The position numbers were made by a program, and so were the translations under genes. Of a stretch of 64,000 nt of DNA, positions 15,058-53,188 are shown piece after piece. The notes under the pieces were generated by a model, which saw nothing but the letters and a program-made list of their open reading frames with translations, did not search any database and was not told the origin of the DNA. Origin of the DNA: Pseudovirgaria hyperparasitica (lineage: Eukaryota); the NCBI GenBank assembly GCA_010093815.1, contig ML996575.1, one strand, 5' to 3'. Position 1 is the stretch's first letter. Each line of letters starts with the position of its first letter.

Positions 15058-16035
15058 TTAAGCACTTCTCTCTATAAGACTCTTTGAATGCTCTAGATCT
15101 CGGACAATCTGACTCATACAACCGAATCTGCCACGCCAGCAACTTTGCATCACATGGTTTAAAGGCAGGCCTGTAGTATCAGGGAATTCGCAGGCTGTAT
15201 AGAGCTTCTCGACGTAAGGACCGGCATCTATTCGCGATTGATGCTCATGGTAAGGTGGTCTACCTGTCACAATCTCATAGATTGTACAGCCAAACGCAAA
15301 GATGTCTGTAGCTCGGCTGGTATAGGGTGTAGCTGGTCGGTAGCTGAACCACTCGTAACAGGAATCGCCTGGTCTGCCGTCAATACTACAGCCTTCAAAA
15401 TCAATAAGCTTGACCCCTTCCATTGTTGAGATCAAGTTATTACACCCTACATCACAGTGGATGATGCCGCATTCGTGTAGATATTGATAGCCTTTTGCGG
15501 CATCAATTAGCCAGTCAATTTTCGTGACCAGCGCTATCTCAGTAGCAGATTGGCATAGAGTCCTGAGGGCTGTCCCACGTTCAAGCACAATAGAGCCATC
15601 TGCTCGAATGCATAGGAGCTTCGTGATATTAGGATGTGAGCCAAGACGCTGATAAGCCTCACGCTCAACTTCCCCATTCCCGTCCTCAGGTGAGTGGAAC
15701 TCTTTCAATACTCTCTTTTCATCGATGGTAAAGATGATACCGGCCTTCCCGCCGGCTATAAAATGTAACGCGCCTGGGGGTATCGAGTCAACACCGGGTT
15801 CGTTTGAAATTTCCTCGAAAGGCGAGGGCTCATTTATGGGTTCCTTGGAAAGTCTGGTTTCGTTCGACGGTGTGTTGGAAGGCTCATTTGAGGGCTCGTG
15901 AGGAGGTTTATCTAAGGACTTGTGCGAAGATATGTTTGGGGCATGATTCGGAAAGCGGATATTACAAGTAAGAACTCGGAGCAGGCAGGTAGAAAGGTAG
16001 CTCCGGTTGGAGCCCATGATGAAACGACTTCGCAA
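15058..16035 (-). CDS. Atypical small protein kinase (non-RD, PKc-like); 5' end uncertain
   Basis: Gly loop FIAGGKAGIIF, VLKEF, alphaC EREAY, catalytic loop IIHCDVGCNN, LIDFEG, and subdomain IX DIFAFGCTIYEIVTG..PY. Confidence 0.85.
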   Translation of the reverse strand: MRSRFIMGSNRSYLSTCLLRVLTCNIRFPNHAPNISSHKSLDKPPHEPSNEPSNTPSNETRLSKEPINEPSPFEEISNEPGVDSIPPGALHFIAGGKAGIIFTIDEKRVLKEFHSPEDGNGEVEREAYQRLGSHPNITKLLCIRADGSIVLERGTALRTLCQSATEIALVTKIDWLIDAAKGYQYLHECGIIHCDVGCNNLISTMEGVKLIDFEGCSIDGRPGDSCYEWFSYRPATPYTSRATDIFAFGCTIYEIVTGRPPYHEHQSRIDAGPYVEKLYTACEFPDTTGLPLNHVMQSCWRGRFGCMSQIVRDLEHSKSLIERSA

Positions 16036-18601
16036 AGTTCATAACAGAAAGGAGAGTTGCGCGATGAGAAGAAGAGGGCCAGTAGAGAGAGGGCCAGTAG
16101 AGAGAGAGTGGGGCTTCGAGCCATCGCTAGCAAAGAGGACCAGGCATCAAGGCATCAATCATACCACTGCATGTGAGTCACTCAGCGTACTCTCATACTC
16201 TTTTCTCTCTCTCTGGATAATTAGAATCAACAACTTGGAACTTCTTTGTTGCTTACTAAGTCGTTACTGAACCTCATTTGTGACATGTCTGTTCTACTCG
16301 CTAATACTACTCTGCATCTCCATGAGCCCCTCTCTCTGCTTTCCGCGTTCCGCTCTCCTGGCCCTGGCTCGCGGCTATTCATTCATCAACCACCCATGCC
16401 GCATCTGCAAATCAGCAATATCCAATTCCTCAACCCGCCTTGCTGGCGACTAGCTGCTGTCTCGCACACGACTTTCTTTCCCGATCGAGTTTCCAGCCGC
16501 ATGCTGTGTTCATGCGCCTCATCCCGTTGGCTCTAACCGTCCCAGTCTTATCCGACTGCATTCGTCCCTCCATGCTATCTATCCTAGAGCCTCCAGATCA
16601 CTTTCATGTCATTTGTCCACACTATCCAAATACTCCACGTGTACATACATGATCCTAGTATGCCAGCCTGTACGCATATATCAGACAACGTCAACAAGGC
16701 TGGCTGATAGGCTATAGAGACAGTGATCCATCCTGCAGCCTCAGCCCCACATTGGATTAGAACATGTAAGATGCGGACCGATCACATCTCTGCACCATGG
16801 ATTCTTCTTGCCGGTAATACAACATCTTCTTCGCAATCTATTCGCTTGGTCTCACATACGAGCTCGCCCATAATACGCTTGGCCGTCTAGGTATGAGCCG
16901 ATCGATTTACGAATCAGTAGTAGTATCCACCATCATTTTCTTATTTCGCGTTCTACAGTCCACGGTGGGTGCCAGCGCGACCATGACAATGGACATGAGT
17001 GTAGGCTTCTCCATTGGATTGGGTATCCCTCTCTCGCTTCAGACAGTATGCGCGACCCCAGCCGGCAGTTCACAACCATGCTCGCAGGCCTTCTTACCGG
17101 AAACTCAGTACTGCGTACGCGGATAGATAGACAGATGCATGCCAATCCCGGCCTCCCCGCGTCGCCATCAGGCTGGTCACCTAATGCACACCACAGTATC
17201 ATATTGGTTGTTGCGTGGCGCACAAGCGGCTCCTCGCGAAGGGCTCGCCCCGCTTGTCCCCAGTCAGATAACTGGGACATTGCACTTGGGGCTGAGAAAG
17301 GCCATCGAAATCAACATGCATGCATGTCAGCTGCAACTCGTCACTCCAGCACCAATCGCATCACATTGAATCCCATATATTTACCGTTGTATATGTATGT
17401 TGTAGCAGCAGCAGCAGCAGCAACACCACACCGGTCGGTCGGCCATATATCCTGAACCGATGTGAGGAAACAGAGTATCATGAAACATGATACCACATCA
17501 GATACCCGATCGCTTGAGCAAGTAGGTCTTTCACAAGAAAGAACAAGACTGGGTCCTTACCACATGGATCCCACGCTCCACTTTCCCCCACGCCCACTTT
17601 CCCCACAATTTCCTTCTGTAAACACTCCAATCCCATGCCCACGCCTATACTTGCACATTTCTGACATTGACATATTACTCCGATGCACCCAACTGAGACG
17701 CGTATGCACTATATCCTACTATTCAGAACCACATGCGATCTAGGTAGCATGCGGGAAAACAGTGTCGTAGACTTGAAACTAGACACTAGGAGTGGGAAAA
17801 GCATTCGTTCGCTGATTCATCTATAGAGGATAGATAATTGATTTTTTAGATACTTTTCCCATTTACTCATAAATAGTATCCCTTAGTCTGTAAACAGTAA
17901 CCCTTTGTGTGCAAACGGTATCCCTTCGATTGCTCAAGCCACTTCTGGGCACTCAAACTAACTCGTAGAGTTATTAGACACGCACTGAACGTTTTGCTTA
18001 TGAGACATTACATTCCACTCAGGCGGTGTGAACGTACACGTGCCAAACAACTTGTAGATAGTCACTGGCAAGACACACAAAAAACAATATGGAAGTATAC
18101 ATCTATCTATATGTATTTCAATATGCATGCTCTCCCTTTTGGCCTCATACCTAACTTACTGCTCGCTCTATACACATACCCTGCTTGATACTCAAACACA
18201 CAAACCACACACGGGAACATACTCACACCAACAACGTCTAGATCTAAATCTATCGCTCTTCAAGACAGCCAAGACAAGGGTCCCCAAAGGAATGAGAGAA
18301 GGCTATGATGCCGCCATATACAAACGTTCGTTCTAGCCTTCCGCTACAGCCACACGCTCATCAGACACGCGCATCCAACAAGAGAGAAAATGCATAGAAT
18401 AGGGACCAGGTATGCGTGACCAAGGAACTGAAAAGCATGCCGAAGCGCGACCATGGGATAGTCTCCGGTCTTGTCTTTGTTTGTGGGTTCTGGATTGGGT
18501 TGAAATGGATTGATATGCTTTGAAAAGTCGATCGTGGTCAATGTAACTGTTTTTTTTTGGGCGTTTCCCTCCCATCAATAGCCGTCTCTCCCCCCTGATC
18601 T

Positions 18602-20898
18602 TTATGTCTCGCTCTTGGTTCCGCCCATCATTCTAAACGGCGCCCATGCCTTGCTTGTTTCTGGCCCCTTTGGCCGCCCGAAATTCATGTCTAAATCTAG
18701 CAAGATCTTCAAACTATTTCGGCTTCGCAGGTACGGTAGAGGTGCGCTCGCTGCTTGCAGTCCAACCCCAGGTTCTGTGAACCCAGAGGGGCCCGCCTTG
18801 TCCTCGTCCGCGCCGTGCCCGCCTGGCATCGGCAGCAGGTTTTGTAACACTTCGTATGCAGCGAGCGTGAAGCCGAATTGCGGCGAGGACCGAAGGATAC
18901 GCGCCGGACCTCCCTTGAAAAATGCCTTGAAACCCTCTTGTTCGTATATCGTTCTCGCGCAGTGTCGCAGCCCGTTGTATGTTTGGTCACCCTTTCGAGC
19001 CTCAACTTGCAGACGCGTCTTAATGACGTCAAATGGAGTCGTGAGATACGCTGCCGGCATACCAGCGATCGCACCAGCGGTGAGGAGATGTAGAACCCCG
19101 AGCTTCTTCGTAGGCGACTCACCAAAGAGGTCGCGTTTGAGATGGGCGTATGTTGGGAAGTAAATGGCTGAGAAGGGAACTGAAGATTCAAATTAGTTAA
19201 TCCTCGTACGAGGTATAAATTCCAGTACGTACCGTCGCGAGAAAGACAGGCTGAAGCGCCCTTGTAAAGACCGACGAGACCGAGATTGCGAACGATCCAC
19301 ATCGCAGATCGCTTTGGAGTACCCTCAGCTGATTTCATCATCTCTCCCTGTACTTGTAACCGGATCTTGACTATTTCTAGAGGGTTGGTAAAGATCTATA
19401 CACAGCGATGTTAGCCTTTATTTTGTACATCGACCATCTCTGAGCGAGGTCACTCACCACTTGGCAAGCACCAGCGGAGCCACCGGCCAACATCTCTGCC
19501 GGAAACCAAATCTGACCAGTCTCCTTGTTCATGAACTTCCCACGAACAATGTCGTTCACAGTCAGCTTTATGGCCTTCTCAGGCGCGACACCAACAAGCT
19601 GAGGCAGGACTCCGGAGTAGAGACCCTTGAAACCTTCGTTGCGAATGACCTTCTTTGCACAATCGAGCGAGTTCTGATACAGCAGCTCACCAACGCGTCC
19701 ACGCTGATTCTGCATTCGCGTCTTGACCAAATCAATCGGGTATACCATGAATGCTCCGAATGCACCAGCCAGACTTCCAAGAGCAAAATGATGCGCTGCC
19801 TCCAGGACGTCGTGGAAGAAGCTTTTAGTTTTGGAAAAGGTTTCGGCACCGGCCTGGCCTACAGCAGAAACCAGCCCTTGCCCGGCTCGTTTGTAGTAGT
19901 TGTGCCACGATGCATCCAAGACTTTTGCAAAATCCATCAAGCTTAGGCGTCCTGACGTATCATCCAGGCCAGCGAAGTGGAACAGGATGTCGGCTTCCAT
20001 GGGAGTGATGAGGGAGAAACGAGCAATACGAGCAGCTTCATTCAGGAAGTCGGTGCGAGTAATCTTTCCATCTGGACTTTTCGCAGTTGCGTTGCGGAGA
20101 ATGAGCTCGACCAGATCCATTTCGCGGATCATGTTCTGGAATGCGCGAACATTGGCGTAAGATATCTTGCTTCCGGCGGAAATGTTACAGAGCGTTGGAA
20201 GGTTTTCGAGAAGATGGTCGGAAAGCTTGTGGTGTGCAGTCTCAATGATGATACGCTGAAATTGTTCGGGCTCAATGTAACCATCATTGTTCTTGTCGAA
20301 ATGTAAAAATGCCTGTCGGACGCGCTCACCTTGCAGACCTCTCAACATCTGCGAGAACTGTGGGTATGTCATCGTATGCCTCTTGTTATTAGAACCAATG
20401 TACAACGCCGCCCATTCCGACGACCAATTGAATGGTAGGGCATTTTCCGACTTGTTCTCATTGTAGATCCGCTCAAAATCCTCGAATGAAACCAAACCAA
20501 TGCCTTTGGTATCAAACACTCGGAAGGCTATTTCATATTCGGCGTCGGGTTTGCTGAGAAGGTTGTCGAAGCTGGTCCAGTCGGACAGGGTCACTTTGCC
20601 TTGTTTTCTTCGATCGGCGACTTTGAATAGTAGGGAGTATTGGTCACGTTTGATCTTGTGCTGATGGCGATGGAAGGTCAGTCTTAGCTTCAAGCTTCAG
20701 CTTGTCAGGGATACCAACATAGTCTTCATTCTCTGGTGCAATCAGGTTGATGAAGTCATCCTCTTCGAGGAAGTAGTCTCCTGATGCTTCGTCGAGCTTT
20801 GCGTGTTTCATGAAGCTTTGTCTGCTTTGTTCCGACAGACCTGGCTCCTGTGTGGATCCCAGCAGAGCTTCCTGCACCGACTCTTTCAAGGCCGCCAT
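18602..20898 (-). CDS. AGC1: Calcium-binding mitochondrial aspartate/glutamate carrier (Aralar/AGC1 family)
   Basis: N-terminal EF-hands ([28 protein letters not shown]) and carrier signatures [30 protein letters not shown], plus [14 protein letters not shown] and [10 protein letters not shown]. Multi-exon. Confidence 0.95.
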
Positions 20899-23335
20899 GC
20901 TGTATAATACGGGTTCTTGATACAAACAAAAGAACCGTCGATGATAGCAAGGTTGTCAATGGAGAGTGTATGGCGACGTTGACGGGAGGCTCAAGTGTCG
21001 AGAAATGGGAGAGCGGTGTCGCAAGGGTCACAAACCCGAAGGCGCAAGGTGCAGTCGAAGGTGGATCTGACCAAGAAGCTATCGCCGATAGCTCCCCGAT
21101 GCGGGAGACGGGCGTGGGGAAATTAGACAGAGGGCCCACGGACAGGGACGAGATGATAATTGAAGCAGTGTGTAGGGACAGAGTGGAATGTGGGTGCGTG
21201 TGTGTGTTGTGAACAGACAAAGGAGAATGAATGCGACGATTGGTGAAATGAATACCCTACAGAGTAGCAAGGTTGGCAGTTCTCCGGCAAACGAATTTTT
21301 CGGGCATTTTGGTTGTCGTGTTTGTCCTACTGTGGCCAGCCAAGCACCAGCCACCTTGTTGCGATCGATGGCTTCAAATACCTCGAGTAGCCCATCACCC
21401 ATCCACGTACTCTGCGGGCACAACTCATTTCCCAATCTACTCTATTACACCTACACCTGCGCCGTATCTACACGATTACATGAATTGCACCTTTCAACGG
21501 CGGCTTGTTGGAGCTCATCGTCCTTTGCGCCCCGCGATGAGGGAGGCTGGCAGATACCTTAGATGGCATTCCGGCCTTTATTCAAACACCTACCCTTGTA
21601 TGGAGACTATTCATCAGAGATGACATCGCGCAGCAAAAACAACTCAAGACGTCGCCAGCCCATCTAGACTGGTAGCTGTTTCATTAGCCTACGTTTCATG
21701 TGCCAGCAAATAGCCAAAATAAGCCGTCGTGTGATGTGGCAGCAGTGACCTATTTCTGCGGCTCTAACATCCAAGTATTAATGTACCTAGGCAGACCTAA
21801 ACCGTTCCCTCGAACTACAAGATGCAATACTTCCTTTGCCGGCATTAGAGCTCAACATCTGGCATTTCATGCGGATAGCCCACCCTGAAAATTGCACGGG
21901 CCTCGTATATAATTAGGGACTCGATGCTCTTTTTGTCTCTCCCAGGTAAGAGATAGTACGACGCTGTTCATCAACACATTCATGTTTTCATTCCCAAGAT
22001 CATCGAGCAAGCTTGCCTACGACCTCATGGTTACTGAGTACATCGCTGCCGCTGTTTGCTGTTGCCTTCACCATAGATCGAGCGAGGAAGTCATTTCTTC
22101 AGAACAGTTGACGCATCTTGTCAAATCACTCTACCCGTTGCACAGGGCATGTTGTCCCAGATCTTGTTCTTATGATAGTCTTTACCTCATTCAGGTCTGA
22201 ATTTTCAGTATAAAGGCCTGACTTACTAGCACGATCGATCCAATAGTCACGGACTATACCACTATGCATCTCATCAACACGACCTAGGTGATGCGAACAT
22301 CCAGATTGACGCGCACTGAGAGGCTTTGCAAAATGACACCTTCCGTTCTCAAGGTTTATCATCGAGACGCAACGTCTCTCCAGTTGATTCCAAAAGCTGG
22401 GTACGTTCAATCCTTGTTGTCCAGACATGTAAACAACTTGATACCGCGCAACGAAGGATCAGACTACATAATTAGTGAGTGCTTTTTGACTTGCTTCTAC
22501 ATTCCACAAATCAGGCCTGCTTGCCCGACAAGCTGGATCGCTATTCATCACCGTCCCGCAAATTTATTTTCCAGTCATGGTACTACCATGACTTTCCTTA
22601 GCAGCGTAGGTAGAGGTAGGCAGTATCGGCTGCTTACTAATGTCGCCAGTGTTTACAGATCAATATATACTCTCCCTAGATATGCCCGCGCAGAACGGTC
22701 CTTACAGGCAGGCATCAAGCACAGTGGCGTGGTATATCGTAGTCGGTTCATTTTCTTGAGTTGTTGTTACACCAATAGAAAGGAGCGTAAGTTACACTCA
22801 TTTTTGGAAACTCTAAAGCTTTTGTACTATGACTTCTCCATTTGGCCTATGCTTTGAACTTACGCTGATTGACACCTGTCTCTAAAGTTGTGCAGGACTT
22901 TGATGCTCACATTCAAGGTGGCTCTCTTGAGTTTCTTCCAGCTAGTCGCAACCCATCTAAAATGGAGTAATATAAGTCTGGATGCCTGGGACCAGATGCA
23001 TTACTCCCAAAAAGGTAAACGTACTAAACGATCTAAGCTTATCCTATATAATTAATAGATCATAGGGCATCTAGGTACGTCAACAATAATTATAATTGGA
23101 CCAGACTTGGACTAAGAAGTAAGCTACCAGAAGAGCGAAAGCTGGTCATGAACCTTGCACCCTGCAATGGATCCGCCTCCGCTAAAGCGATCACAACGAC
23201 GTCACTTCCCGGTCAGGTTCTGAGGTTGGCCAAGCTTGACCATCGCAGCCTGTTCACTTCTTAGAACTTCTGCCACCTCTGACTTCTTCTCTACTTGGAA
23301 TCGTTACATTGCTACAGCTCTTCCATAGTCTCACA

Positions 23336-25071
23336 ATGGCTGCAGAGCAAGATCGGTATGGCGCTCACTTTGCTCCTAGCCAGGACAACATCGACAGAGC
23401 TAAGCAGACTGCTGAACAAGCAGCTCACAAAGTAGGCGACAAGATCTCTACTGGAAAGCATCACCTCGGTCACTACTTTAGACTCGAGCAGACTGCCCTT
23501 GAACAAGCTCGTTCCAAGATGTCCGGAGGTTTAAGTGGTGCGGAGCAAGACACCTGGGCTACATACTTCTCCATTGGCAACGATGGTCTTGAAAGAGCTA
23601 GAAGGTTAGCTGGCACTAAAGGAGTTGGTTCTGAGCAAGACCGCTATGGACAGTACTTTCGAGGCCCAGACGACGCAGCGCAAAGACTTAAGAGCACTTT
23701 CAAGGATGCTGCTGGAGATATTGACAATGCTGCTCATAGAGTTGCTGGTAAAGCAAAGGATGCTTTCCAAGATGCTTCTGGCTCTGAGCAAGACCGATAT
23801 GGCAACTACTTTAAAGGATCTAATCATGCAGCTGAGAGGGCCGATCATGCTGTTATCAGGACGAAAGATGCGTTCCGTGGTACGACCGGCGCAGAGCAAG
23901 ATCGCTATGGCGGTCACTTCGATGCTGCAAGCGGAAAACTGACTGATAAAGCTCGACGAGGTCTTCATTCATTTGAGGATGCCCAGTATCAAAGACGCGA
24001 GGCTTTCGATAGAACTGGCACATTCTCTCCTAGCGACAGAACAGCTAATCCTCTTCGGACAGCCACCGTTGGCATTCTTCAGTCAACCATACTCCCATCT
24101 CTATCGCTCCATGGAGGTCTAGCCGCAATCGCATATAGCGTCGCTCGTTACACAGGTCGTCTCGATGTGAAAGACTATCTTTGGCCCGCCGCCCAAGTTG
24201 CAAATGCATGGTACAGCGCTGTGGGCCGTCATCTGCTCGCTGGAGTCTCCCTCACTATGATCGTGGAGACGCTCTCGTACCCCGAACGTATCCTCCTTGG
24301 TGGTATCACTGCCTGGGGTACTCGTCTCCTCTACCGTATTGCGACCCGCAGCATCGCTCGCGGCCAAGATGATGAACGTTATATTGAAGCTAAGAAGGAG
24401 CCCGACTTCTGGAACAAGGCCGCCTTCGCCATATTCCTACCTGAAGCACTCTTCCAGACTATCATATCGCTCCCAGTCGTTCTTCCGTTCCGCGATGGTG
24501 CTGCAAGCGCCGCTCTAGCGCCTACCGCTGGCCTCGCTCATGTCGCTCATTTCGTAGCTGTTTTCATCTTCGGCACTGGGTTTGCACTCGAAACTCTTGC
24601 TGATCGCCAATTAGCCACACATAAAGAGAAGGCTACAGAAAGTCTGAACCGAGGGGGTGTATGGAGCATTGTTCGGCATCCAAAGTGCGTACCCTTTTCC
24701 CACCCCAGTCCGTATAGTACAAATTTATTGACTTGTTTAGCTATCTCGGCGAAACTCTCATTCATGCCTCCTTTCCCATTCTTCTCTATTCATGTGGTCT
24801 CCTCCATCCTATCGCCGTTCTTGGTCCACTCGCCAACTATGCTTTCTTGCGCTATATAGGCGGCGATGCGCAGACTGAGACATCACAAGAAGAGAGATAC
24901 AAGACTGAAGATCCCGCTAAACTTGCTCAATTACAGCAGTACAAGGCGAAAACCAACTCGTTCTGGCCAAAGGTTGAGGAGTTGAAGAACTCATGGGTAT
25001 GGACCGTGGTAGGTGTGGGCCTAGTAGGTGCAGTAGTCGAGAGCGGAGTGAGGGAACTCCTCTTACACTAG
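23336..25071 (+). CDS. DUF1295 (steroid 5-alpha-reductase-like membrane protein) with N-terminal EQDRYG repeats
   Basis: Membrane domain with WGTRLLYRIATRSIARGQDDERY, ETLADRQL and GVWSIVRHP|NYLGE (intron ~24685-24739). The N-terminal ~200 aa is hydrophilic and repetitive. Confidence 0.85.
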
Positions 25072-25197: not shown

Positions 25198-26925
25198 TTA
25201 TCTTACAACTGGTTTCAAATGCACCCACAGCGGGGTTTTATCCCAAACTACATATATCTTCTGCTTGGGAAGCTCCACATTATTGGGTGCGAGAGCTATG
25301 TCAAAGTGCCAAAGAATCTATAACATGTTAGCATACTGATCTTCTCCATTGAGCCCGTCCATGAATGAAGAGCGCAAACAGGAGGATGATTGTTACCTGG
25401 GCCATGATAAGGCGCATCTCCATTCTAGCTAGACTACTACACAGTTAGCATCCCGAACGTACGTAGTACCATTCTCAGAGGGGGCGGTAAGTACTTGCGA
25501 CCAATGCAATTCCGTGGCCCAACACTGAACGGCTGTAAAGCTTCCTTTCGATCACCTGACCACTTCCCGGTCTCATCAGGAAGAAACCTTTCAGGGTCAT
25601 ATACCTCTGGGTTCTGCCAATTTTCTGCGCTGTAATTCATAGCATACATTGTAATTCCAACACCAGTCCCGCCAGGAACATGCTTTCCGCAGATCATAGC
25701 GCCTTCTGGGGGAGTAACACGAGTAAAAGTACCAGCACCGGGTGGGTACATACGTAGGCTTTCTTCGAGAGCAGCTATAAAATAGGGCATCCTACCCATC
25801 ATGTTCATATCGATCTCGTCGGCGCTCGAGCAAGTCTGTCGGATCTCTGTTGTTACCCGCGACTGTATATCCGGATGAGCGCCAAGGAAATATGTGAAAC
25901 CAGTGAGTAATGTTGCTGTCGTCTCTGAACCTGCAACAATAAAGACACGCGAATTAGTTGACAGATCTCCAAGGCTTAATTTACCCAATCTATAGGCATC
26001 GATCATGTTCTGCATCAGGTCCGTATAGTCTGGATTTCTGTCAAGTCGGCGAAGCAACTTCTCATGCACAAGCTCGTGATGATCAGTACGAGATCTTCTA
26101 TCCTGGGATCGAACCAAGACTAGCCACATGAGCTTCCTAAGAATTCCAAAGCGATTGACAGCGAAGATGTAAGCCGCTGCGCGGACATATAGTCTCAGTA
26201 CTCTTATCCAAGGATGATATGTGGAATTCGATAAACAATCGAAAGATTCACTGTACGCGAGATGCCCAATGATATCGAATGTGATGAACTGGTAGGCATT
26301 ATTACGGAAGTTTTTCAAGTATTGTTTAGCGATAATGAGCAGGTTTAAGGCTTACGTTATACCAGTCCTGAACGTTGATAGCGTCTCCATGTTCTGCTTT
26401 TTCTTGTAGTCTTTGTATTAACAGGCTGACATAGCTGTTGACGGTTGGCTGTTGCTCTCTAAGCGCCTTGTCAGAAAATCCATGGGCCATTAGCCGGCGA
26501 AGGAAACTGTGATGCTCCCTGCCAGCGCTGATGATATCATCTTCTCGGCTCTCACGAATCAAGCTCTGTTCATCTTTCGCGTTCTCCGGCTGTCCTTGTC
26601 GGTGACCAAAGATGTCCTGCCACGCTAAGGGATTGATATATCCTAGTTCATTAGGAGAAACCCTAACAACTTCTCCATACTTATCGTGGGCAGCCTTAAT
26701 TTCAAAAGCAAGTGTCCCATTGAGTAAATGATATTTGTACCACAAGTCGGTCACTCTAGCCACCAATGGTCCAGGATAATTTCTTAATGGATGAAGAAAA
26801 ATATTGTATGTAACTGTGGTAGCTCCTGCTAGAAGGACCTAAAGAAGTTTTAGATCCGAGGAAAATGAAAATGGTGTAAATTGGCAACATACAATTGTGA
26901 ATATTCCGAGCAGTGTGAACGACAT
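25198..26925 (-). CDS. Cytochrome P450, CYP65/TRI11-like (5 exons)
   Basis: Spliced MSFTLLGIFTI|VLLAG..HPLRNYPGP, YGEVVRVSPNEL, AGSETTATLL, EESLR, PERF, heme motif FSVGPRNCIG and C-terminal VWDKTPLWVHLKPVVR*. Confidence 0.93.
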
Positions 26926-30268: not shown

Positions 30269-32641
30269 CTAGACCTTCAATAACTCTAGCAAGGATTGAA
30301 TGGCTTTATTCTCAATCTCACAGTGCTTCTCGATCCCCGCAACCTCCGCCAATATCTGCATGCCTAGTTTGCTAAGCATAGTAATGGTGTACTCGACACT
30401 ACCAGACTCCTGCAGATATTGGAGGATGAGTCTCTTTTGAGCCTCGGAAAGTTTTCCTGTATTGTGCCGCTGTGAAATTATATTTTCCAGCAGATGAGAT
30501 TCCGAGTGAGTAAATGCATATATCAGAGCAATGCTGAGTTTCCCTCCATCCAAGTCTTCACAAAATCCTTTTTGCTCCATATACTTGTTCCGGTCAGTTT
30601 TGATTTCCGTCTACGAATGTATCATGAACAGACATACCTCTGGTAAGTTAAGGTTTGCATAATCGTCGCGAATTTGGAAATACCTTCCGAACAGGGTCAT
30701 AAGAGGTATAAGATTTGGCACCAAAGGCAACCGGGCTTTGGCCATCATGAGTCTTGCAAGTAATCGGAAAAGGCCACCAGTTTCTAGAGATGGCAATTAG
30801 TAGGGGTTATATTGATTGGATCAGGACTTGGAGGCATACTTCCGTCAATCATTACCAAAAATTGTTGCAAGGTCGGACGGATCCCGTTCGAACTCCAGTA
30901 CAGATCATAGCTTTGGCCAATAAAGAGATTTCTTATTTCTTCTGTAATCTAGTGTTAGCGAAATGCTGACGGGCTTGAGCATATCTTATCACTCGGAGAT
31001 AGCTTACCACTGAAGATATCGAGACCTTGTGTGTCATCGTGCTTTCTGATAATGCTCATAGCTTCGAGAATGTAATAGCTGGCCGAGTTGATCGTTTGTG
31101 GGGCACCAAAGACCATATGAGTCGATGGCTTACCACGACGGAGACTTGAGTCATCCTGAACATCATCGAGCATCAGTGAGGCATTATGTAACATACCAAC
31201 TGCCTGATTTATCCACGACATATCGTCTGGTGCAACATCTAGCCATACATTGATAGCGTTGCCGATTAATTCTCGAATGTTTTTGGATGGAAGCGATGCT
31301 ACATACTCGGCTGGCGCCGAGAGAACCTAGAAATCTGTCAGCATTCCTCTCAATCTGACATGACTATAGCACTGGGGTACATACCGTTCCTGGCAATTCA
31401 GGGAGTCTGGTTGTAGATACTATAGTGGCATCAATGGTGTCGCACATCTCTTTCTCTGGAGCTATGCTAGCATTCGAGGATGGTGGTGTCGGAACATTGT
31501 GGTCGAGGGATCCTTCAGTTAGCATAAGTTGCGAGAGCTGTAGTGTATTTAACTTCTGCTCTGGATGATACCTCGGGCATGAATTTCCCCACATAAGATT
31601 ACCGCTGATCATGTATCCCATAGCCTCGATGAAAACCCGCGAGTCGAGTGAGAGCTGTTCATTTGCCTTCACGTCTTTTATCGTGTCAACATATGTAGCC
31701 ACAAACTGCTTTACCATCTGGAGAATACGACACTGTGCATCTCCAAGACTCATAGACTCCTGTGTCATCAGGATCCAAAGGCTATTGGTCATACTTGATT
31801 TGTTAAGCATTTTTGCCAGCTTCTGCTCCTTCTCCCACGACTGGATATCGTTCGTGAGTACTGCAGCTAACCACACAGGTCGAGTCAGTTGTACACATAG
31901 ATCCATCTCCTCTGGAGGGATCGTTATAGCCATGCCAAAAGTGGCTATAGCGATCAAGAAACTATAGTATCGTCAGTTTGTATGTATGCCTCAAGAAACA
32001 TCAGAGCGAATAGACGTACTAGGACCCACTATCAACTACCCGATAGTTTAGATAATCATCCAATGACGGAAAATGCGACGGGTCACGCTTTAAGTCGAGA
32101 TCTTTCTTCCAATAGTCTATAACATTCTTCGCTCTCACGGGGTCGATAGCGGACAGCTCTTTGAAGATGTTGGCTAGGATTTTTCTTTCGCCATTCAAGT
32201 CGACGCTGACTTCGCCAATCTCCGGGCTCCAGTCCAAAGCATCCATGACCTGAGCGTTTAGCTCAATGGCCTATCACGGCAGTTAGTAGCTAGGTAGAAT
32301 TGGACAACCATTGGTCGAGTCATAGCAACCTTTGAGATCTTAGCTACGTCAATAACATCGTCGTGAAGAAAGCCAAATTCCATGATATAAGCAACAATTC
32401 CTAACCGTTCTGGTCGACATTCTGGTATGGCTGCTGAAGTGAAGTTGTACAATGGCCCCATATTCCCTCCTAGTGATGTTGCAGGTAGCGGACCGACATA
32501 CTTTCGCCAATCATTCCGCAGTCGGACAGTAGCAGCATCGTCCAGATAAGAGTAGCGGCTCACGCGCACAGGAATTCCAACGCAAAGCCCTTGATTGTCA
32601 TATGACTCTGGATCAATCATGTATGAGTAACGGTACTCCAT
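30269..32641 (-). CDS. Bifunctional (chimeric) terpene synthase: class I terpene cyclase plus trans-prenyltransferase
   Basis: Exons 32641-32330, 32270-32020, 31961-31385, 31326-31008, 30941-30840, 30783-30638 and 30583-30269 total 2022 nt (673 aa) with no stops. Cyclase motifs: PECRPERL, FLHDDVID, YRVVD, NDIQSWEKE, W..SCPRY. Prenyltransferase motifs: SKNIR, HNASLMLDDVQD..RRGKP, GQSYDL, KTGGLF, FQIRDDYAN, GFCEDLD. Confidence 0.95.
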
Positions 32642-33009
32642 CGTTAACAAGCTCGGTCTGTCTTTTAGTTTAAACTTTGTGTTTCGTGGAAAGGAAGTGT
32701 GATGCGACGGCGTTTGCAAAGCTGGATAGTACCTAGAATTATATAACCTCGTAATGTTACATTACGCTTCACAAAGGGGCCAGTCAGTGATGCCCAAGTT
32801 CCCTAGCATACCCTTCCAAATGCACTAGCGTAATCCGCGTGGGATTGACATGTTATCCTACAACTTAAGTCGTACCATCATGACCAAACTGTAGCTAAAG
32901 AGTTTGTGCATACAGACCTAGCGTCAGCACCGGAGTATGGGAACGCTATCTGGGTATAACCTTTCAGCGCAACTGCTATCAGACACCTACATATGTGCCA
33001 TCTGCATTT

Positions 33010-33333
33010 CAGATAGTAATCATGTATTATCAGTATTATTGGTCAAAGTAATACTAACATAAGATACCTTATCCTGTATATTATCTATGTTACTATTACT
33101 CTTATAGTTAAGTCTAAACTACCTAGACTATGTATGAAAACATACCTATAGTATATTATAGTAGTAGGAGAGTTTATTTTCATAGATAATTTGTAATGTC
33201 TAATTTTTTCTAAGATAATACCTTCATTTCTATAGATAACTAATAGAAGTAAGAGTAAATCGTAAGCCTCAACAAATTTAACACGATATTTAAGAATAAT
33301 ATAGTAAAGTAGAAGCTAAATGTATACACGTAC

Positions 33334-33371
<38 letters not shown>

Positions 33372-33745
33372 CTAGATAGAGTATCCTTTCTAATTAATGC
33401 TTAACACAGTAGCGATACTTATGTATATACTATGTAGTACTATATAATTAGAAGAGATGTATTAATACTTAGTGGGATACGAAATAGATCTTTATAACCG
33501 ATTCTCTTATCATAAAATTTCTTCTAATATTATCTATTTGATACTATAAGATATTCTATATTAGTACACAAGAGAATAGTAGATTAGAGTTGGAGTTAAA
33601 TCTACTATAGATAATCTTATAGGTAGTTTCTTATAAGTCTCAATATATAGAAAATTCTAGATATAGTAACGACATAAAATACTAAATATATTCATATTTG
33701 TTTTCGTATATATAGGACTACTATGCAGGATAATATCTCGTATAC
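33010..33745. mobile_element. AT-rich RIP-like degenerate repeat relic with (TA)n tract
   Basis: Abrupt drop in G+C, TpA-rich and CpA-poor by eye, no ORF of 60 aa or more, (TA)n at ~33337-33367. Confidence 0.6.
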
Positions 33746-38908: not shown

Positions 38909-39760
38909 TCACCCCTCAGCATCAATCGCCTTTTGCAAATTCACCGTGAACGTACTATCTTTGAACGGCACCGTTGCGTCTCCAAAGTCCGTATCCGTCA
39001 GTGCCTACAAGTCAAATCATCAGCACACTTCAACCCTTATCACCCACCAGTACAGACTCACCGTCCTCGCCGCAGTTGTCAGGCTCTCCCACGCCACCAA
39101 CGGCTGCTCGCCACCCACATCGCTCGTGAACACCATCTGATGATTCACCGGAAACACACTCCGATACCCGACCAAGGGCCTGGCACCGCTATAGCTTGGG
39201 CTCGCAGACACATCGTAGTTGCCATGCGCAGAGACGGCGAATGAGAGCGTCGTAGCCGTCTCCGACGCGGCGCTCAGCCATACTACAATGTTCTCCCACT
39301 CGTGTCGGTGGCCGAGGCCCGATGACGGCGAGTCTTTGGGCATATACCACGAGTACATGATGGCGTAACGCCCAGCGAAGGATGTGGCGCGTGAGTATAC
39401 TTGGCCGGTGCTGCTGGAGCAGTCGCCGTCGGAGACACCGGTTGTGGCGAGGCCGCCGCTGTTGATAAAGTGTTAGTGCATGCTCGATGGGAGGAGGATT
39501 TGAGTCATAGGGCGGCGAGAGCAGGAAACGAACCCCGTGTCGCCGTTGGCTTGCACAGCAGGGAAGGGTACACAGCCATTGAAGATCTTCAGGAAAGGCT
39601 TATATTTGAGGTAGAGCGTGCCGGTGGTGCCTGATGGAACGGTTTGGGCGAAAGGAACCACAGCGTCGTGGGCTATTACTGCGCGGCTCTCGAGGGTGAG
39701 GGGAAAGGCAGAAGTAAGGCTCGCAAAGAGGGCAGAGATGACGAACGTCTTGACCTGCAT
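38909..39760 (-). CDS. Necrosis- and ethylene-inducing peptide 1-like protein (NLP/NPP1, type 1), 3 exons
   Basis: Signal peptide MQVKTFVISALFASLTSA, KYKPFLKIFNGCVPFPAV, second Cys in GDCSSSTGQVY, AIMYSWYMPKDSPSSGLGHRHEWE and last exon ALTDTDFGDATVPFKD. Confidence 0.95.
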
Positions 39761-39913
39761 CGTCAGTAAGATGTATTCAATTGATAGAACACTTGCGCGG
39801 GTGAGTCGGAGCTGAGAATGATCCTCGCGAGGTTGACTGTCCTAGTAGAGTCGACTCTGAGTGAATTTGTTTCTTGCATAAACGTTTGAACCAGGAAATG
39901 TTACACTCTATAA

Positions 39914-41222: not shown

Positions 41223-42897
41223 TCAGCTGAAGATACCTCTTCGACCACCCCTCCTTGTACCACCCATCTCGCTATCTTCACCCTCCCATGAGGGTGCCGA
41301 TGCTGTGCCCCCTTGTTGTTTACTGCTCTTAATCTCCAGGCCTGCAGCTTTCATATTCAACTGTAGTAAACGAAGACGTAGTGTATTTTCATAAGCCTTT
41401 GCAGCTTTGATAGCATCCTCTTGTACAGCATGACGGGAATTGGTTTTGGGAGCGATGAGAAGCTGTGTTATGTTAGTCGTGAGGAGTTTGTAGGAAGGGT
41501 AGACGTACCCCCTCCACGAGATCTATGCGAGCTTTGAGGACGCCTTTCTCAATCATTTCGACAAGTTCAGTCTCAATTTTCCCCTCTCCAGTAGATTGGA
41601 ACGCATTGGTCATCTCTTCAAGCGTAACGCACTCGAATGGAATGAAGTATTGTACTATGCACTTGCTTCTGATCGTGCCGTATAACATGCGCAGTACGGG
41701 ATTCAGGTAGACATCTAACAGGTAATCGGTCCGGTACGCATCGAGCTGCTCAAGACATGCGGAGTATTTGCTCGAGCAGAAAAGAGAGATTGCGCGTCGG
41801 ATGTGAGGTTCTAACTCGAGATATTGACGGAATTCCGGGTTGTTTAGGACTTTTTCTCGCAGCTCTTCCCTATCCATGCTTGCTAGCGCACAGAGACCGC
41901 CATATACTGCAATGTCATTCTGGGTGAGAACCTCTTTTTGCCATGCAATTTGTCCCTGATTCTCAAGGTTGCCGTATGCAAACTTCGTCACCATGAATTC
42001 TTTCGCCGCCTGTCGGAAGTTGCCCATTTCCATGCTGCACAGCCCCATCAGAGCTTTGATGATGGGCTCATGCTCTGTCCTACTGTCGCTCTTCTGGCCC
42101 GACGAGTTGGCTTTGATGAGCTGCGACATAACCGACTGCCATTGCTTCTGCTGAATGCCGACGAGTATCAACCGGAATAACATGTCGACAATGTTGTTTG
42201 CGTTTGTGCAGTAGTCTCGCATGCGCTGATATGCTTTCCAGCTTTCCGCGAGCTCGCCAGTAGAGTAATAGTGCCGACCAAGGTCTTCGTTGCCCATCTG
42301 TGTCGCATTGTCAGTCTAAGGACTAGACGCCCGCCGTTCTTTGACCCCTCGACTTGGATGTAATTACGTACTCGTATGCTCTCTTTGATGAGATTGTTCC
42401 GGTACCCTTTCAATTCTTTCTCTAGTCTTTCACTCTCAGCCTTGATAACCTTCAACTTGTGATCAACCAGCTTTTGATCTACCTGACCGGCAGGATCGTT
42501 TGGTGCAACCTGGCTTAGCGCACTGGTAGCTGTGAGGTATGCCTCCACATCTTTTCCGCGTTCAGCTTGCTGGACTGCCAATCGAAGGGCATCTAGAGAG
42601 AGGACTGTAGACGTTGTGCCGATGAGCATGAGGCGATCGAACCGAGTACGATCTGGTGGCCGTCATCTCTGTCAGCGACAAGTAAAACCTAGCGAAGGGA
42701 AAACGCACCATCATAGTGCTGAATATAGGAATCAAGGTCGAACTTTGGTAAGTCTGCAGGTATGTCAATTCGGGCGCCAAAGGAACATCAAACCCGTACG
42801 TAGCTGGCAGAGGAAGCTCACCTCTCACGACCAAGCCTCCGGAAGCCAGTTTCTCTTGGAAAAAGGGTGAATCCTCGACGTCCACAGCGCTCGTCAT
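41223..42897 (-). CDS. CSN1: COP9 signalosome subunit 1 (PCI domain); alternative upstream ATG at 43005
   Basis: LEKELKGYRNNLIKESIR|MGNEDLG, RMRDYCT, DIAVYGGLCALASMDR, FRQYLELEPH, LLDVYL, IVQYFIPF and LKARIDL. The last exon ends with TGA at 41223. Confidence 0.93.
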
Positions 42898-43929
42898 ACT
42901 GGGCTTGGACTTCAGGGCGCTCACTGAGCCTCGAGCATTAGTTTTCTGACGTTTGTTGGGAGTTGGACTTTTCCTATGAGCTGGATGTTGCTGCGGAGGG
43001 TCCATCTAGGAGATGATGCAACCTGGCTGTCGACCTTTAGCGAGCGCGCGGGGCAAGCAGGCTGGACAGTGCGCCGCTACTTCGGGTCTGGGGTTTTCCT
43101 GAACGCAAATTATTTACTATGTAATTATTGTGGATGGGTAAGAGATACAGTTTAGAACTATGCAGGTGAGTTGGAGGGCAATGGCTGAGTAATGGTAAGT
43201 GCACTTCACAAACTTGGAATGTGCAAGTGAAAATTGAAACTCCCGAGATGCGCGAGCGAACGCTGCCTATGTACTCCAGCTCCTTCACACCGGTCTTGCC
43301 TTCAGAGTATTAAAATGCCAATTTCGCCAAACAAATGCTGCCCTGCCAAACGCCGTTTGCAGCAGGCAGAAGCCTCATTGGCCGTTGCCCAGTACGCTGT
43401 CTAGACAAGACTTCGTGTTGCCCAAACCAAAGACTATACAACAAGGAAGAACAAAGAAAGCCGACCCATTCACGGTACTATTCAAGTAATTAAGAGCGCG
43501 CAGACGCCATCTCCCTCCAAACAATCCTCTACCCATACAGATTCTTGAAACTCAACGCATTTGAACTCAAAGAATATACCGTCTGCACAAGGTAGCTCCT
43601 TGCAGTAATGTCACCAAGTCGCCTCGTCATCACCTTCTGTCATAGGAGGAAGGCCGACCCTGTTAGAGTACTCTAAGGAAGAGTCACCTGTCCCACGACA
43701 GAAATGATATTGATTTGACGGGAATGTACTCTTGCAGTATGGGATGGCCGCGGCCTCGGTATGAGTAAGATGTAGTCGCGTCCTAGTGTTCGAGGTTAAA
43801 AGTCGTGCTTATAACGGAAATGCATGAATTAGGCGTCTGGCCTAGATCTCATAGAGTCCAGCCATGGTCTTCCATAAATCAAACAATGCGACAGAGCGCT
43901 TCCAGTATTGTACCTGAAATCCAGGGCTC

Positions 43930-46900
43930 TCACGTGTGCTCGACCAAGTCCTGGCTAGGAGGAAGTAGCCTTGCCATTTCCTGAATATCTTCAATCACTT
44001 CGTTGAAGGCCTCAATAACCTTTTCTGCAATATGAGTACGGTTCCAGTCGTGTCGGAAGCGCCAGATGGCATCCATGAGATGGGCGTTCACTTGCTCTAA
44101 CTGCTCCACACTGAGACCAGAGGAGTTCTTCGCGAGGCGATCAAAAACTTGCTCGAGGTATGGCTCATCAACTACGAGATTTGGCGCCACATCGTTCAGT
44201 AACGCATTGATTGCTGTTGGTTGCTGGGGCAGAGAAGTGACCTGAATTGCTGGAGGCTGGCTCGACTGCGATGGCTGAGAATTCGTCTGTTGACTGGCAT
44301 GGTGGGGAAATTCTGGGGAAGAGTCAGTGCTCCAGTCACTCATTGACTCGCTTGTATACGTGCCTTGAGTATCGGGAATTGATGCGACTGAGGGCGGCTG
44401 CATCATTGAAAAATCGGGATGATCTCTACTAGGGTTACCATTCGTACTTTGAGTGTTATTCGAAGTGGAGTAGCGATTCGAGCGATCGGTCCTTTGACCA
44501 GACGTGGTCGTTGAGGCGCTATTATGAAGCTGATGTGGTTCAATGCCAAATGCCACATGGGTGTGCGCCGAGACCTGTGATTTCTGGGTTTGTGTATTGG
44601 CACCGCTCTGTGTGCCATATGCCTGAGTCTGATTGTCATGGTCTTGGCTATCGGTCATCGGGGTGTCCTCGTCAGGGTGAGAGTTCACACCTGCACCATT
44701 GCCGCCAGCTGTGACACCATTGGAAATACCACTGTATGAGGTCTGGTGGCGAACTGGTGTGGTTGGTGGCATGACATGTCGGCCAGGAACAGGTACACCC
44801 AAGATGATGGGACCCGTTCCATTTGTTGTTTCCGTTCCAACATTAGACACGTGCGGTGGCACATTTACAGATCCATTGAATAAAGGCACGCCTGGGCGCG
44901 CATGCTTTGTCGCCTTCGCAGCTCGCGCTCTTTCACGTTCATAGACGGCATCACACTCAGCTGCTAGGGCAGGCTGTTGCGCAGAGATGGTATCCATATC
45001 GACCTCGACATTCGAGAGGAGCTCTTTTGCTTTGATCATCTTTTCGGGATGACCAAACGTGACCCAATCCTTTTCCATACGCCTTATGTCATCACGATAA
45101 TCTCGGGGCCGCTTGTAGTACCCATTCGATAAGCGTTTCTCGATGATGGTGATATCTAGATTGTAGTAGAATTTGCCTGTCTCGGTCTCGCGGAGACCAG
45201 GAACTCCGTGCTTATCGGTACCAAGCTCGTAAGGCCGCAGTTGTCCTTGCTCCGCTCGTAGTTCTTGAGGAAGGTCTGTCGTGACAACAGTCGGATCTTG
45301 CTCATCGTACAAGTACTCTATTACTCTTTCTTCTATGACAGGAAACCTGAATGATCTGTACTTCTGTTTAATTTGGTCCATGACAGGCTGTATGAACATC
45401 TTCAGTCGATTCAGCGTCAGCCGGTCATTCTTTTTCTGTGCCTTGAGCTCCTCTTTCGTAGGCTCTACAGGGGCCTTTTCTGGTGCGAGCTCTAGTTGCG
45501 CGAGTTTACGTTTCTTGCGATTGGTGGGATCAGTAAAATGAGTTGGCGGAAGTCTGATGAAGCTGATAAGATCGCCAAAGAACTCTTTTCGTGCCGAGTG
45601 GTTAGGTCTAGTCAGTTCATACTGATTTCTCCTAGAATAGCCGAACAAATCCTTGACCATATGCGCTTTCCTGGCTTCCGATGCTTTGTCGTGGCCCGCC
45701 TCTGGGTCCTCAAGCATTCCGAGGAGCAGGACGCTGTCATCAGGTCTTAGACTTTGGAGCAATGACTTGAATATACTAAGAGCTGCCGGAGGCAATGAAT
45801 CGTACCAGATATCGACATGTGGAATGTAAATAACACTTGGTTTATGACGTTTGACCTCTTTGAACAGCTGCGCAACGGCAGCCTCGGGTGATCTTGAAGA
45901 ATCTTCTAGTAAAGTGGCAAGATCAAAGGATTGGACAAATACTCCCTCGAGCTTGTTGAGAAGGGCAGAGGAGAGATACTGCTGTCCCATCCCACCAAGC
46001 CCGCGTACCAGTAGTCGAGGCCTGAATACGCGAGCTCGTTGGAACTCAGTCTCCATCATCTCACGTTCGAATCCTTGAGCATCCTCCCGATCATCGTACT
46101 CGGCTTCTTCGAGCGCTGTAAGTTTACGTTTGCGAGGTAGTACATCATCAATCATTCTGGTGAGATCCGTGAAGGGTTCGCGTAGTAGCGGCTCGATTTT
46201 CTTAGGAAGCGGTGCCGCGGACGATTGCGCGGATCTTTCAGACGATGGGATCATCTTATTTACCGATATCATGAAATCCTTGGCCAGAACCTTGATGGTA
46301 TTAGGATCCACAATGTACTTCTTGTTGGACTTATATATCTGAGGATAAGTGCCCTGAATTGCATTGAGAGCAGCTTCTGTGCAGAGAGCCCGGAGATCAG
46401 CACCACCATATCCCTTCGTTAGTTCAGCTAGTTGATCCTTGAAAGGGTCTTTGAGTGGCGGTTCCCAGCCCTTCGTATGTATGTCGATGATGGCTCGGCG
46501 CGCTGGTACACCTGGTAGAGGAAAGTAGAATTCACGGTCGAATCGTCCCGGTCGGCGAAGTGCTGGATCCACAGAGTCGGGCCTGTTAGTGGCTCCAATC
46601 ACTATTACTTGACCGCGACCGTCCATGCCATCCATCAGAGCTAGGAGGGTTGCGACAATGGAGGCATGAATCTGCTCTTGCTTGCTCGATCTAACGGGGG
46701 CTAAGCCATCAATTTCGTCGAAGAAGATGATACTGGGCTGGTTCTTGCGTGCTTCTTCGAACAGCAAACGCAATTGGCGTTCGGCCTCACCAACCCATTT
46801 GCTCAACGCATCCGCACCTTTGCGCATGTAGAATGTGACCTTCTGTCCACCAGAGCTGACGCTGGAAGCTAACGCACGAGCAAGTAGGGTTTTACCAGTA

Positions 46901-48798: not shown

Positions 48799-50180
48799 GG
48801 CGCAATTTTAATTATATGAAACAAATTTTGTTCGACCTGCGGCAGACTTTTAGCAACACCGTAGGCAAGTGGATCTTCGAGTACTGTGCGGTAAATTGGC
48901 CGCACAACAGTACACAGAGGTATGATCTTACACTTAAGCCCGGAACAAGCCTTCAGGAGTACTGAGACCACACATCCAGCTGGCAAAGCGATTACGTCGA
49001 ATGTGCAGCGTCTTGCTGTAGACTTTAACGCGTGGAGGTTGTGAATGGCGTATTCAGGCAGAGAAGCTCGTGAGTGACGCGCTTATTGGTACGAACTCTG
49101 ATCTTATGAATTACCAGCGATAGGCAGAGAGTCGCAAGGATGGCAGTCGCGACGTTGGCAGAGGATAGGTTAGGAGGTGGACAGGTAGTTGTGAATGTGT
49201 AGACCAGTCTCGGGAACTGCTTTGTGGATGCGAGTTAGGTGTTGACCCTTGGACTCGCAAAGCCAAGGCGCTAAGCCTGTTACAGCCCTTCGTTTGACGC
49301 TACACCTCGATCCCCGCATCATTTTAGAAGTATTTGCCATGCTCGCGCGGAGCATCTATAAGACGTGTATCTGAGCAGTTCATAGCATTATTCTTAAAGT
49401 TGAATATATGGCTATCAGAGCGGATGTTTCGAATCGCGAAAACCGCATTATATATTTCTACAACTTTGCGCATTTCCCCGGTCCCTGCGCCCGCCCTATA
49501 CGGCCATCCTTTTTTCGCCATATCTTGTATTCCATTTACTTGACGTCCGAAGTGATCTGCAGGCACGAGCAGTGGGGTTAAGCTTAAATTTGAGCCGCAT
49601 GTAAGGCTTGCCGGGGACCACAGGACGATTTCTTCGTGTCCCTAATTAGCTTTCCACGCGTTGACGCTCAAGCCGGCAAGCGCCATCCCCATGCTTCGGG
49701 TGGACTCTCGAGTAACATTCTTTATTAAGTCACTGTCGAAATGACAACTTGTTGATCTCTGTGAACGTTTGACCATGAGTAGATTTGAATTCGTTAATAA
49801 AGTGTGGTCTATACAGGACCAGGTTACAACAGCCAAATACTTTAATGAGATCCACATAGGATAGATGATAGCATTGCGAGTAGCAAAATTCTGTTACGAT
49901 TGGGGCCCGATCCTACCCTGGAATGTAAAGTATCTGGTGTTGCTTATAGGCTATCGCTAATCGAGTCACGTGACCGAGTGATAGGATAACCATTGCGTTC
50001 TCCCCATGTGCTACTATTGCTCATGAAGCAACCCGCAGCAGCTGTTGAGAAGCACACATATCAATAGTCAGCTGCAATACACGTAACCTCTAATATTTAC
50101 AAGTTCTGATATATACAAAGCGTCAAGATTGACGACGCAAGACATGCAATCCCTGAAAAAGCATATATACCTGGTATGGC

Positions 50181-51723: not shown

Positions 51724-53188
51724 ATGGCTTCGCTGGGGAACGTATGCAGGCTCTCTGCTCGCTTGACGAGCTCTCAATTGCGCAACAATGTCTCTGCTCG
51801 GGGTAGGCTATCAACGGTTCTAGGTCTCGACGATGCATCAGCTAACTGGTATAGGCTTTCGCACAGCGACAGCAAGCTTTGCAGCGCACAACTTTACTAT
51901 GCCAGCCATGTCGCCAACTATGACCGAGGGCAACATCAGCAGTTGGAAGGTCAAAGAAGGTAATGCACCAGCTGCATGTCTCGACGATCATAGATTGACA
52001 AATCTCAGGTGATAGTTTCTCCACTGGCGATATTCTACTTGAGATCGAGACAGACAAAGCTCAGATGGAGGTCGAAGCGACAGATGACGGTGTCATGGCA
52101 AAGATCACTGTGCGATAAGCAGAACTCACCCGCAGCAAAGTCAAGAGCTAATGAGGCCACAGCAAGGAGACGGCAGTAAGGGTGTAAAGGTTGGAGCTCG
52201 TATAGCAGTCCTTGCTGATCCTGACGAGGATCTCTCCTCTCTTGAGATTCCCGCCGAAGATACGCCCAAGATATCGCAGCCAGGAAAGTCGGAGAAGCCT
52301 ACCCAACAAGAATCTGCACCCGCGAAAGAGTCGCAACCACAAGAAGCGGAGCGCAAAACTGAAGTCGGAAACATGCCGTCGAGTGCTGGAGAGCCCAAGC
52401 AACAAAGCTACCCTCTCTATCCTTCCGTCCAATTCCTCCTGCATTCCAACGGCCTCAGCAATTCTGAAGCCTCCAAGATCCCGGCCACAGGTCCCAACGG
52501 CCGCATCCTCAAAGGCGACGTCCTCGCATACTTAGGCCGTATCGAGAAGTCCTACTCCGCCGAACAGTCCAAACGCATTGCCAAGCTCGGCCACCTCGAC
52601 CTCTCTAACATCAAGCTCGCCGCGCCGCACGCCCAGAAAGACATCAAGCCCACCACCAAAGAAGTCCAACCGGTGCCAGAACCCCCAGTCGAACTCTCCC
52701 TTCCCATATCCCTCACTGCTGTCCTCGCAACTCAGTCTCGCCTCGAAAAGACTCTCGGTATTCATCTCCCTACCTCCACATTCGTTGCGCGCGCAATCGA
52801 CCTCGCAAACTCCGACCTGCCCAACTCACCCAACCGCAAGCCCACCGCCAACGACCTATTCAATTCCGTGCTTGGTCTCGACAGCCTGAGCCCTCGCACT
52901 ACTTACGGACATTTCAACCCACAAATCACACCCTATGCGCTCAAGAGCGCCGGGGCCCCCGCGCAGCCCGTGCCTATGCATAAGAGGAAAACAGATATTT
53001 TTGATGAGATCCTCGGTTCAAAGCCAAAGACAAGAAACCTGCCCGCGCCAGCAACAGCGAGGCCCGTGAAGGAGGCAGTGAATGTGTTTACCGTCAGTGC
53101 GAGCAGAGGCGACGAGAAGCGCGCGATGATATTCTTGGAAAGGGTGAAGACGGCGTTGGAGGCGGAGCCAGGGACTCTGGTGCTGTAG
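51724..53188 (+). CDS. PDX1: Pyruvate dehydrogenase complex protein X (E3-binding protein), mitochondrial, 4 exons
   Basis: Presequence, lipoyl domain [45 protein letters not shown]3-binding [18 protein letters not shown], and fungal PX C-terminus ending [10 protein letters not shown]. Confidence 0.93.

Follow-up and report, generated by a model that had tools for sequence, protein, structure and literature searches.

The phomopsene synthase PaPS (P9WEV6) from Phomopsis (Diaporthe) amygdali represents the nearest characterised relative of PhPS (also PTTS087), the chimeric terpene synthase of Pseudovirgaria hyperparasitica that is examined here in its genomic context. Phomopsene is common to both enzymes. 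With 728 residues, PaPS is longer than PhPS (673), the latter being shorter by about 55 residues, mostly in the linker. Unlike PaPS, PhPS also yields a water-trapped cyclopiane alcohol, penichrysol, and this is the product that it has in common with PcCS, PchDS and PrDS, the cyclopiane synthases of the Penicillium conidiogenone pathway, as far as these are covered by the available descriptions. PhPS groups with PaPS, which the clade lists available place in clade II-B. As PcCS sits in clade II-D, penichrysol is reached in two subclades. A further relative, DvVS from Didymosphaeria variabile, is 46.5% identical to PaPS and makes variediene; its gene is clustered with those of one P450, an epoxide hydrolase homologue and an SDR, as described in parts of PMC9440366. 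The enzymes with solved structures (PaFS, EvAS, EvSS, EvVS, and TvTS) share the two-domain architecture and the folds of PhPS, with identities by structural alignment of about 29–34% in the cyclase and 41–44% in the prenyltransferase, and differ from it in their products.

PhPS itself was expressed in yeast by Chen et al. 2021 (PMC8307374), a paper used here through its supplementary tables and parts of its text, and its product data stem from a screen of 74 genes. SI Table S2 enters PTTS087 under P. hyperparasitica, and SI Table S3 equates it with PhPS (MW798224), gives its type as diterpene, names PaPS as the closest known enzyme (55%), and records penichrysol (19) and phomopsene (20) as its products. 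The construct in that work carried a codon-optimised version as a fusion with a GFPP synthase, in contrast to the native genomic gene considered below; the protein is the same, and no difference was found between the published entries and the gene model.

The synthase gene and its published protein

The window, that is, the whole stretch of 64,000 nucleotides analysed, holds a gene predicted by six-frame translation and a splice-site scan to comprise seven exons on the minus strand, from 32641 to 30269 (Table 1). When joined, these exons give 2022 nt, corresponding to 673 residues and a stop codon, with no internal stop, and bear out the seven exons, 673 residues and intact frame of the original prediction. 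The six introns (59, 58, 58, 66, 56, and 54 nt) all follow the GT..AG rule, and each holds a CTRAY-type branch candidate. The weak donor of intron 1 that had been pointed out earlier, GTTGCT, is present. In an alignment with the seven closest relatives shown, no extra gaps arise where introns 1 and 6 have been spliced out, and the public gene call has the same splicing. Two other acceptors were tried and rejected: a TAG at 30949 for intron 4, which lies 4 bases past the branch candidate and breaks the frame, and a TAG at 30611 for intron 6, which would leave an intron of 27 nt. The seven-exon model as spliced is confirmed as a real, intact gene; the support for its splicing is indirect, because it comes from junctions that align, from an identical public call, and from a synthetic gene that is active in yeast.

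Table 1. Coordinates of the synthase gene, its exons and motifs, and the neighbouring oxidising genes within the window.
Feature	Positions	Strand	Basis or remark
Left cytochrome P450, 488 aa	25198..26925	-	tblastn span 25201-26925 plus stop codon
Type I Baeyer-Villiger monooxygenase (BVMO), 615 aa	27876..29965	+	Convergent with the synthase
Synthase gene PhPS / PTTS087, chimeric terpene cyclase-prenyltransferase, 673 aa	30269..32641	-	Spliced model
Exon 1, aa 1-104, N-terminus of the cyclase	32330..32641	-	Spliced model
Cyclase aspartate-rich motif DDVID, aa 94-98	32348..32362	-	From the exon table
Intron 1, weak donor GTTGCT	32329-32271	-	Splice-site scan
Exon 2, aa 105-188	32020..32270	-	Spliced model
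Exon 3, aa 188-380, remaining cyclase and disordered linker	31385..31961	-	Spliced model, AlphaFold
NSE/DTE motif NDIQSWEKE, aa 225-233	31826..31852	-	Spliced model
Cyclase RY pair, aa 318-319	31568..31573	-	Spliced model
Exon 4, aa 381-487, opens the prenyltransferase domain	31008..31326	-	Spliced model, Pfam
First prenyltransferase aspartate-rich motif DDVQD, aa 434-438	31153..31167	-	Spliced model
Exon 5, aa 487-521	30840..30941	-	Spliced model
Exon 6, aa 521-569, contains DDYAN	30638..30783	-	Spliced model
Second prenyltransferase motif DDYAN, aa 560-564	30653-30667	-	Spliced model
Intron 6, acceptor ends AAG	30637-30584	-	Splice-site scan
Exon 7, aa 570-673 plus stop	30269..30583	-	Spliced model
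Right cytochrome P450, 8-exon model without internal stop, 527 aa	34219..36212	+	Own model; divergent from the synthase

A protein search queried with exon 3 returned four proteins among 807 candidates, the top match being a protein of 673 residues with 100% identity. Near-identity to a characterised synthase with a known product had been named beforehand as the outcome that would count against the original prediction, and it is what was found: the spliced model and the P. hyperparasitica database protein are identical at 673 of 673 residues. This protein is deposited as KAF2756361.1, XP_033598812.1, A0A6A6W5M9, and QXF69100.1, and carries the name 'Penichrysol' in UniRef. Two primers listed for PTTS087 in the supplement of PMC8307374, when translated, reproduce the first nine and the last seven residues of the model. 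A search of the genome with a stretch of the cyclase gave one strong match, at this locus, the second being only 21% identical, and no second close synthase copy was found in the P. hyperparasitica genome. The name, the species, both termini as given by the primers, and the single copy all agree with QXF69100.1 being the protein of MW798224.

The protein is therefore PhPS/PTTS087, already published and deposited with two known diterpenes, and the account as a whole, namely a chimeric synthase that belongs to the PaPS subclade within clade II-B and makes the diterpenes penichrysol and phomopsene, can be held with high confidence. The enzyme itself adds nothing new and is to be regarded as ordinary, because two known 20-carbon compounds have already been reported from its expression in yeast. 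Regarding the wider literature, the word 'penichrysol' was not found in the main texts of the literature searched, appearing only in the supplement of PMC8307374; none of the Pseudovirgaria papers listed concerned terpenoids as judged by the title or the start of the abstract; and the main text of the TRACER preprint holds no mention of PhPS. The mention of 'Pseudovirgaria' in one terpene-synthase paper concerns swainsonine.

Domain structure and the state of the prenyltransferase

Like other fungal chimeric prenyltransferase-terpene synthases, PhPS holds an N-terminal class I cyclase and a C-terminal trans-prenyltransferase, its 673 residues being close to the length of about 700 that is typical of the family. 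Pfam profiles run on the exon frames detect Terpene_syn_C_2 (PF19086) at 5e-10 and polyprenyl_synt (PF00348) at 2.5e-24. The motifs listed in the original prediction (DDVID, NDIQSWEKE, RY, DDVQD, and DDYAN) are each found in the spliced model; the DDxxD/E, NSE/DTE and RY set of the cyclase is thereby complete, and the DDxxD and DDxxN pair of the prenyltransferase is present. The AlphaFold model used here, built with an alignment of 119 sequences, has a pLDDT of 90.4 and predicts a disordered linker at residues 338–365 (pLDDT below 50), whereas a single-sequence run with a pLDDT of 33 was set aside. Among solved structures, PaFS is the top match for both cyclase exons, and Foldseek aligns the model with TM-scores over the target of 0.92–0.94 for the PaFS cyclase and 0.91–0.93 for the PaFS prenyltransferase.

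The prenyltransferase domain could be weak or dead, so that PhPS would act as the reported cyclase on GGPP delivered by a housekeeping synthase. Of the 76 near-invariant columns of the prenyltransferase, PhPS deviates in 5, compared to 1 of 39 in the cyclase, and at least five departures occur in only 14 of 121 prenyltransferase sequences. One of the residues concerned, Gly582 (30545-30547, minus strand), occupies a position that is Glu in 117 of 120 homologues and that belongs to a conserved segment downstream of the second aspartate-rich motif. Furthermore, the published assay, as described in the available parts of PMC8307374, combines the prenyltransferase with the cyclase and a fused GFPP synthase, and the GGPP consumed in it could come from yeast or from the fused enzyme. 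However, both aspartate-rich motifs are retained, together with RRG, KTG, GQxxD and Lys584, and the predicted fold of the domain confidently matches active prenyltransferases. Close relatives depart equally or more (P0002 in eight columns, P0016 in six, and P0013 in five), and the departures among the subclade relatives of PhPS range from 2 to 8, which suggests, as far as sequence comparison can tell, a faster change within the subclade rather than a loss. Because the relatives depart to this extent and the catalytic motifs are whole, a dead domain is considered improbable.

Relatives, products, and proposed cyclisation

Scoring of 7999 candidates in the homologue search produced 275 matches with an E-value of 1e-20 or lower, and among the 120 matches listed none other than PhPS itself exceeds 56.4% identity in the cyclase. 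PhPS and PaPS share 55.8% of residues in the cyclase (aa 1–330) and 51.2% in the prenyltransferase (aa 381–673), compared to the 55% of the table in PMC8307374. Separate trees of the two domains, proposed as a check of the original prediction, were built with FastTree from 120 cyclase and 121 prenyltransferase domains under midpoint rooting, all drawn from the search matches and with few characterised enzymes among them. Both domains fall with PaPS; the clade has 11 members for the cyclase and 12 for the prenyltransferase, each with a support of 0.998. The cyclase sister of PhPS under the same rooting is a protein from Pseudocercospora fuligena (P0002; support 0.906). A D. variabile protein, P0014, also falls in the PhPS/PaPS clade and is probably DvVS. 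Position in the tree would not by itself settle the product, because DvVS, a relative within this clade, makes variediene, according to the available part of its description.

The two segments that had been described as pocket regions diverging from known enzymes are, in fact, shared by PaPS, which is identical at 9/15 and 5/7 positions. The corresponding counts are 7/15 and 3/7 against a record labelled talaropentaene synthase, and 2/15 and 2/7 against one labelled variediene synthase, while further pocket segments of PhPS and PaPS agree at 10/15, 13/16 and 15/18 positions. On this alignment, the two segments are to be read as marks of the PaPS subclade rather than of a new pocket. The cyclases of PhPS and PaPS are thus 56% identical, yet PhPS adds a cyclopiane alcohol otherwise known from a different subclade, which makes the pair a test case for the residues that switch the cascade and admit water.

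Penichrysol is a cyclopiane alcohol of formula C20H34O (HR-EI-MS 290.2607), also entered as a product of PcCS and PTTS136 in the supplement of PMC8307374, where reference 20, cited for PcCS, is a crystalline-sponge paper. Among the known compounds in the available parts of that supplement, there is no entry with NMR or HR-MS data for phomopsene, which seems to be one of six assignments made by GC-MS only. The main product of PhPS might have been misassigned in the screen, being a stereoisomer or another C20 alcohol that co-elutes with penichrysol. The strain from which the penichrysol NMR sample came is unnamed in the text parts of PMC8307374, PTTS136 makes the same compound, and PcCS is listed there in clade II-D, whereas PhPS groups with PaPS, listed in II-B. 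On the other hand, PhPS was named and deposited under penichrysol by its authors, and phomopsene and the cyclopianes are assumed to share a pathway in the part of PMC8954384 available. Since the two are held to share it, it makes chemical sense that one relative of PaPS should produce both, and a misassignment appears quite unlikely.

The original prediction had left the chain length open between C20, C25 and C30 and had regarded the skeleton as possibly new, a reading that is largely refuted and now has very little probability: the sesterterpene and triterpene synthases EvAS, EvSS and TvTS do occur among the sequence matches, but PhPS gave only diterpenes, two known compounds, in a GFPP-supplying host, with HexPP absent from the screen in the parts of the paper available. 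When PhPS was fused to the GFPP synthase in yeast, diterpenes only were scored for it, and four other enzymes gave both classes in the same host (supplement of PMC8307374). Assignment to a C25 or C30 class finds no support in this literature, the C30 substrate not having been offered in the screen as far as its available parts state. Since the protein is PhPS, with penichrysol and phomopsene as its reported products, the product class is C20 and neither skeleton is new. From the description of a PaFS/AcOS-like bifunctional synthase, the intact chimeric enzyme and the broad placement in clade II have stood, while the product class and the new skeleton have not.

Regarding the mechanism, the C-terminal prenyltransferase most likely builds GGPP from DMAPP and three IPP, as suggested by its family, motifs, and fold. 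Class I cyclases ionise GGPP on three Mg2+ ions, and in PhPS the N-terminal cyclase would use DDVID and the NSE/DTE motif to bind Mg2+ and then ionise GGPP. The cyclase is expected to run a type B cascade (C1-III-IV; 1,11-10,14), carried over from the work on PcCS and PaPS; clade II enzymes follow type B cyclisation according to the available parts of PMC8307374. The route proposed for the cyclopiane alcohol in the accessible part of PMC7983979 starts with the 1,11-10,14 closure, a ring expansion, an alkyl shift and a 2,10 closure, and ends with a hydride shift, a 2,7 closure and the capture of a secondary cation by water. In one branch, this secondary cation would be trapped by water to give penichrysol, as in PcCS, whereas in the other a proton loss would presumably lead to phomopsene (C20H32).

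Neighbouring oxidising genes and surrounding sequence

The synthase is part of a row of four genes between 25198 and 36212, in the order P450 (minus), type I BVMO (plus), synthase (minus), and P450 (plus), all with open frames and the key motifs of their families. The left P450, the BVMO and the synthase are covered by consecutive accessions (KAF2756359-61). The left P450 holds AGSET, ExxR, PERF and FxxGxRxCxG, and the right one AGxxT, ExxR, PERW and FxxGxRxCxG. For the exon of the left P450 that was searched, no relative exceeds 52% identity among the 149 non-self matches listed, and P. fuligena is not represented among the nine matches named. The BVMO bears GxGxxG, FxGxxxHxxxW and an AGxWxxNxYPG-type motif. 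We take the FxGxxxHxxxW fingerprint, [AG]GxWxxxx[FY]P and the Rossmann motifs as defining type I BVMOs, and the neighbour gene shows them. Its closest relatives are 53–56% identical over the full length.

Like the cyclase sister of PhPS, the third-best non-self match to this BVMO is from P. fuligena. The relatives of the synthase and of the BVMO in this fungus (KAF7194703.1 and KAF7194724.1, respectively) both lie on contigs of 349,123 bases and have accessions 21 apart, which hints at a linkage of the pair there, though not amounting to adjacency.

In P. hyperparasitica, the flanking P450s and the BVMO probably oxidise the scaffolds made by PhPS. A comparable case is the Penicillium conidiogenone pathway, in which one P450 oxidises the cyclopiane alcohol twice to give conidiogenone (PMC8951520); the passages of that paper on the pathway mention no BVMO, whereas the P. 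hyperparasitica cluster has one. As a tentative pathway, which we consider possible but somewhat less probable than its alternatives taken together, one P450 would make a ketone from the secondary alcohol of penichrysol or from a ring carbon of phomopsene, in the manner of the conidiogenone pathway. The BVMO would then insert an oxygen, forming a seco-cyclopiane or a lactone with an expanded ring, which the other P450 would decorate. If true, this would represent an unreported class of diterpenoid lactones, of cyclopiane or phomopsene type, made by a rust mycoparasite, and P. fuligena would have a related pair of synthase and BVMO. Neither a product nor a paper for the four-gene cluster was found in the literature searched, a collection that leaves most subscription journals outside. 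Together with the synthase, the flanking P450s and the BVMO offer a ready four-gene set for heterologous work aimed at an oxidised diterpenoid that would be new.

The gap from the synthase to the right P450 contains an AT-rich island (33000-33720) with a GC content of 23–30%. Its TpA/ApT ratio is 1.26, compared to 0.77 in the window, and its (CpA+TpG)/(ApC+GpT) ratio 0.53, compared to 1.22. It resembles the remnant of a RIP-mutated repeat in the shared promoter region. On the left, a frame of 539 codons with a DUF1295 domain (23240-24859, plus strand) adjoins the P450 and may be either the edge of the cluster or unrelated to it. About 3 kb past the right P450, there is a gene of the NPP1 family (necrosis-inducing protein-like; 39023-39841, minus strand), detected by Pfam in two frames (7e-41 and 1e-5) and with no sign of cluster membership. 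Ordinary genes bound the cluster at 15061-20696, 41476-48807, 52088-53188 and 60151-61623, where Pfam detects a protein kinase, an EF-hand mitochondrial carrier, an RPN7/PCI subunit, an AAA ATPase, an E3-binding protein, and a purple acid phosphatase. A DUF7729 domain is also detected by Pfam at 5923-7255.
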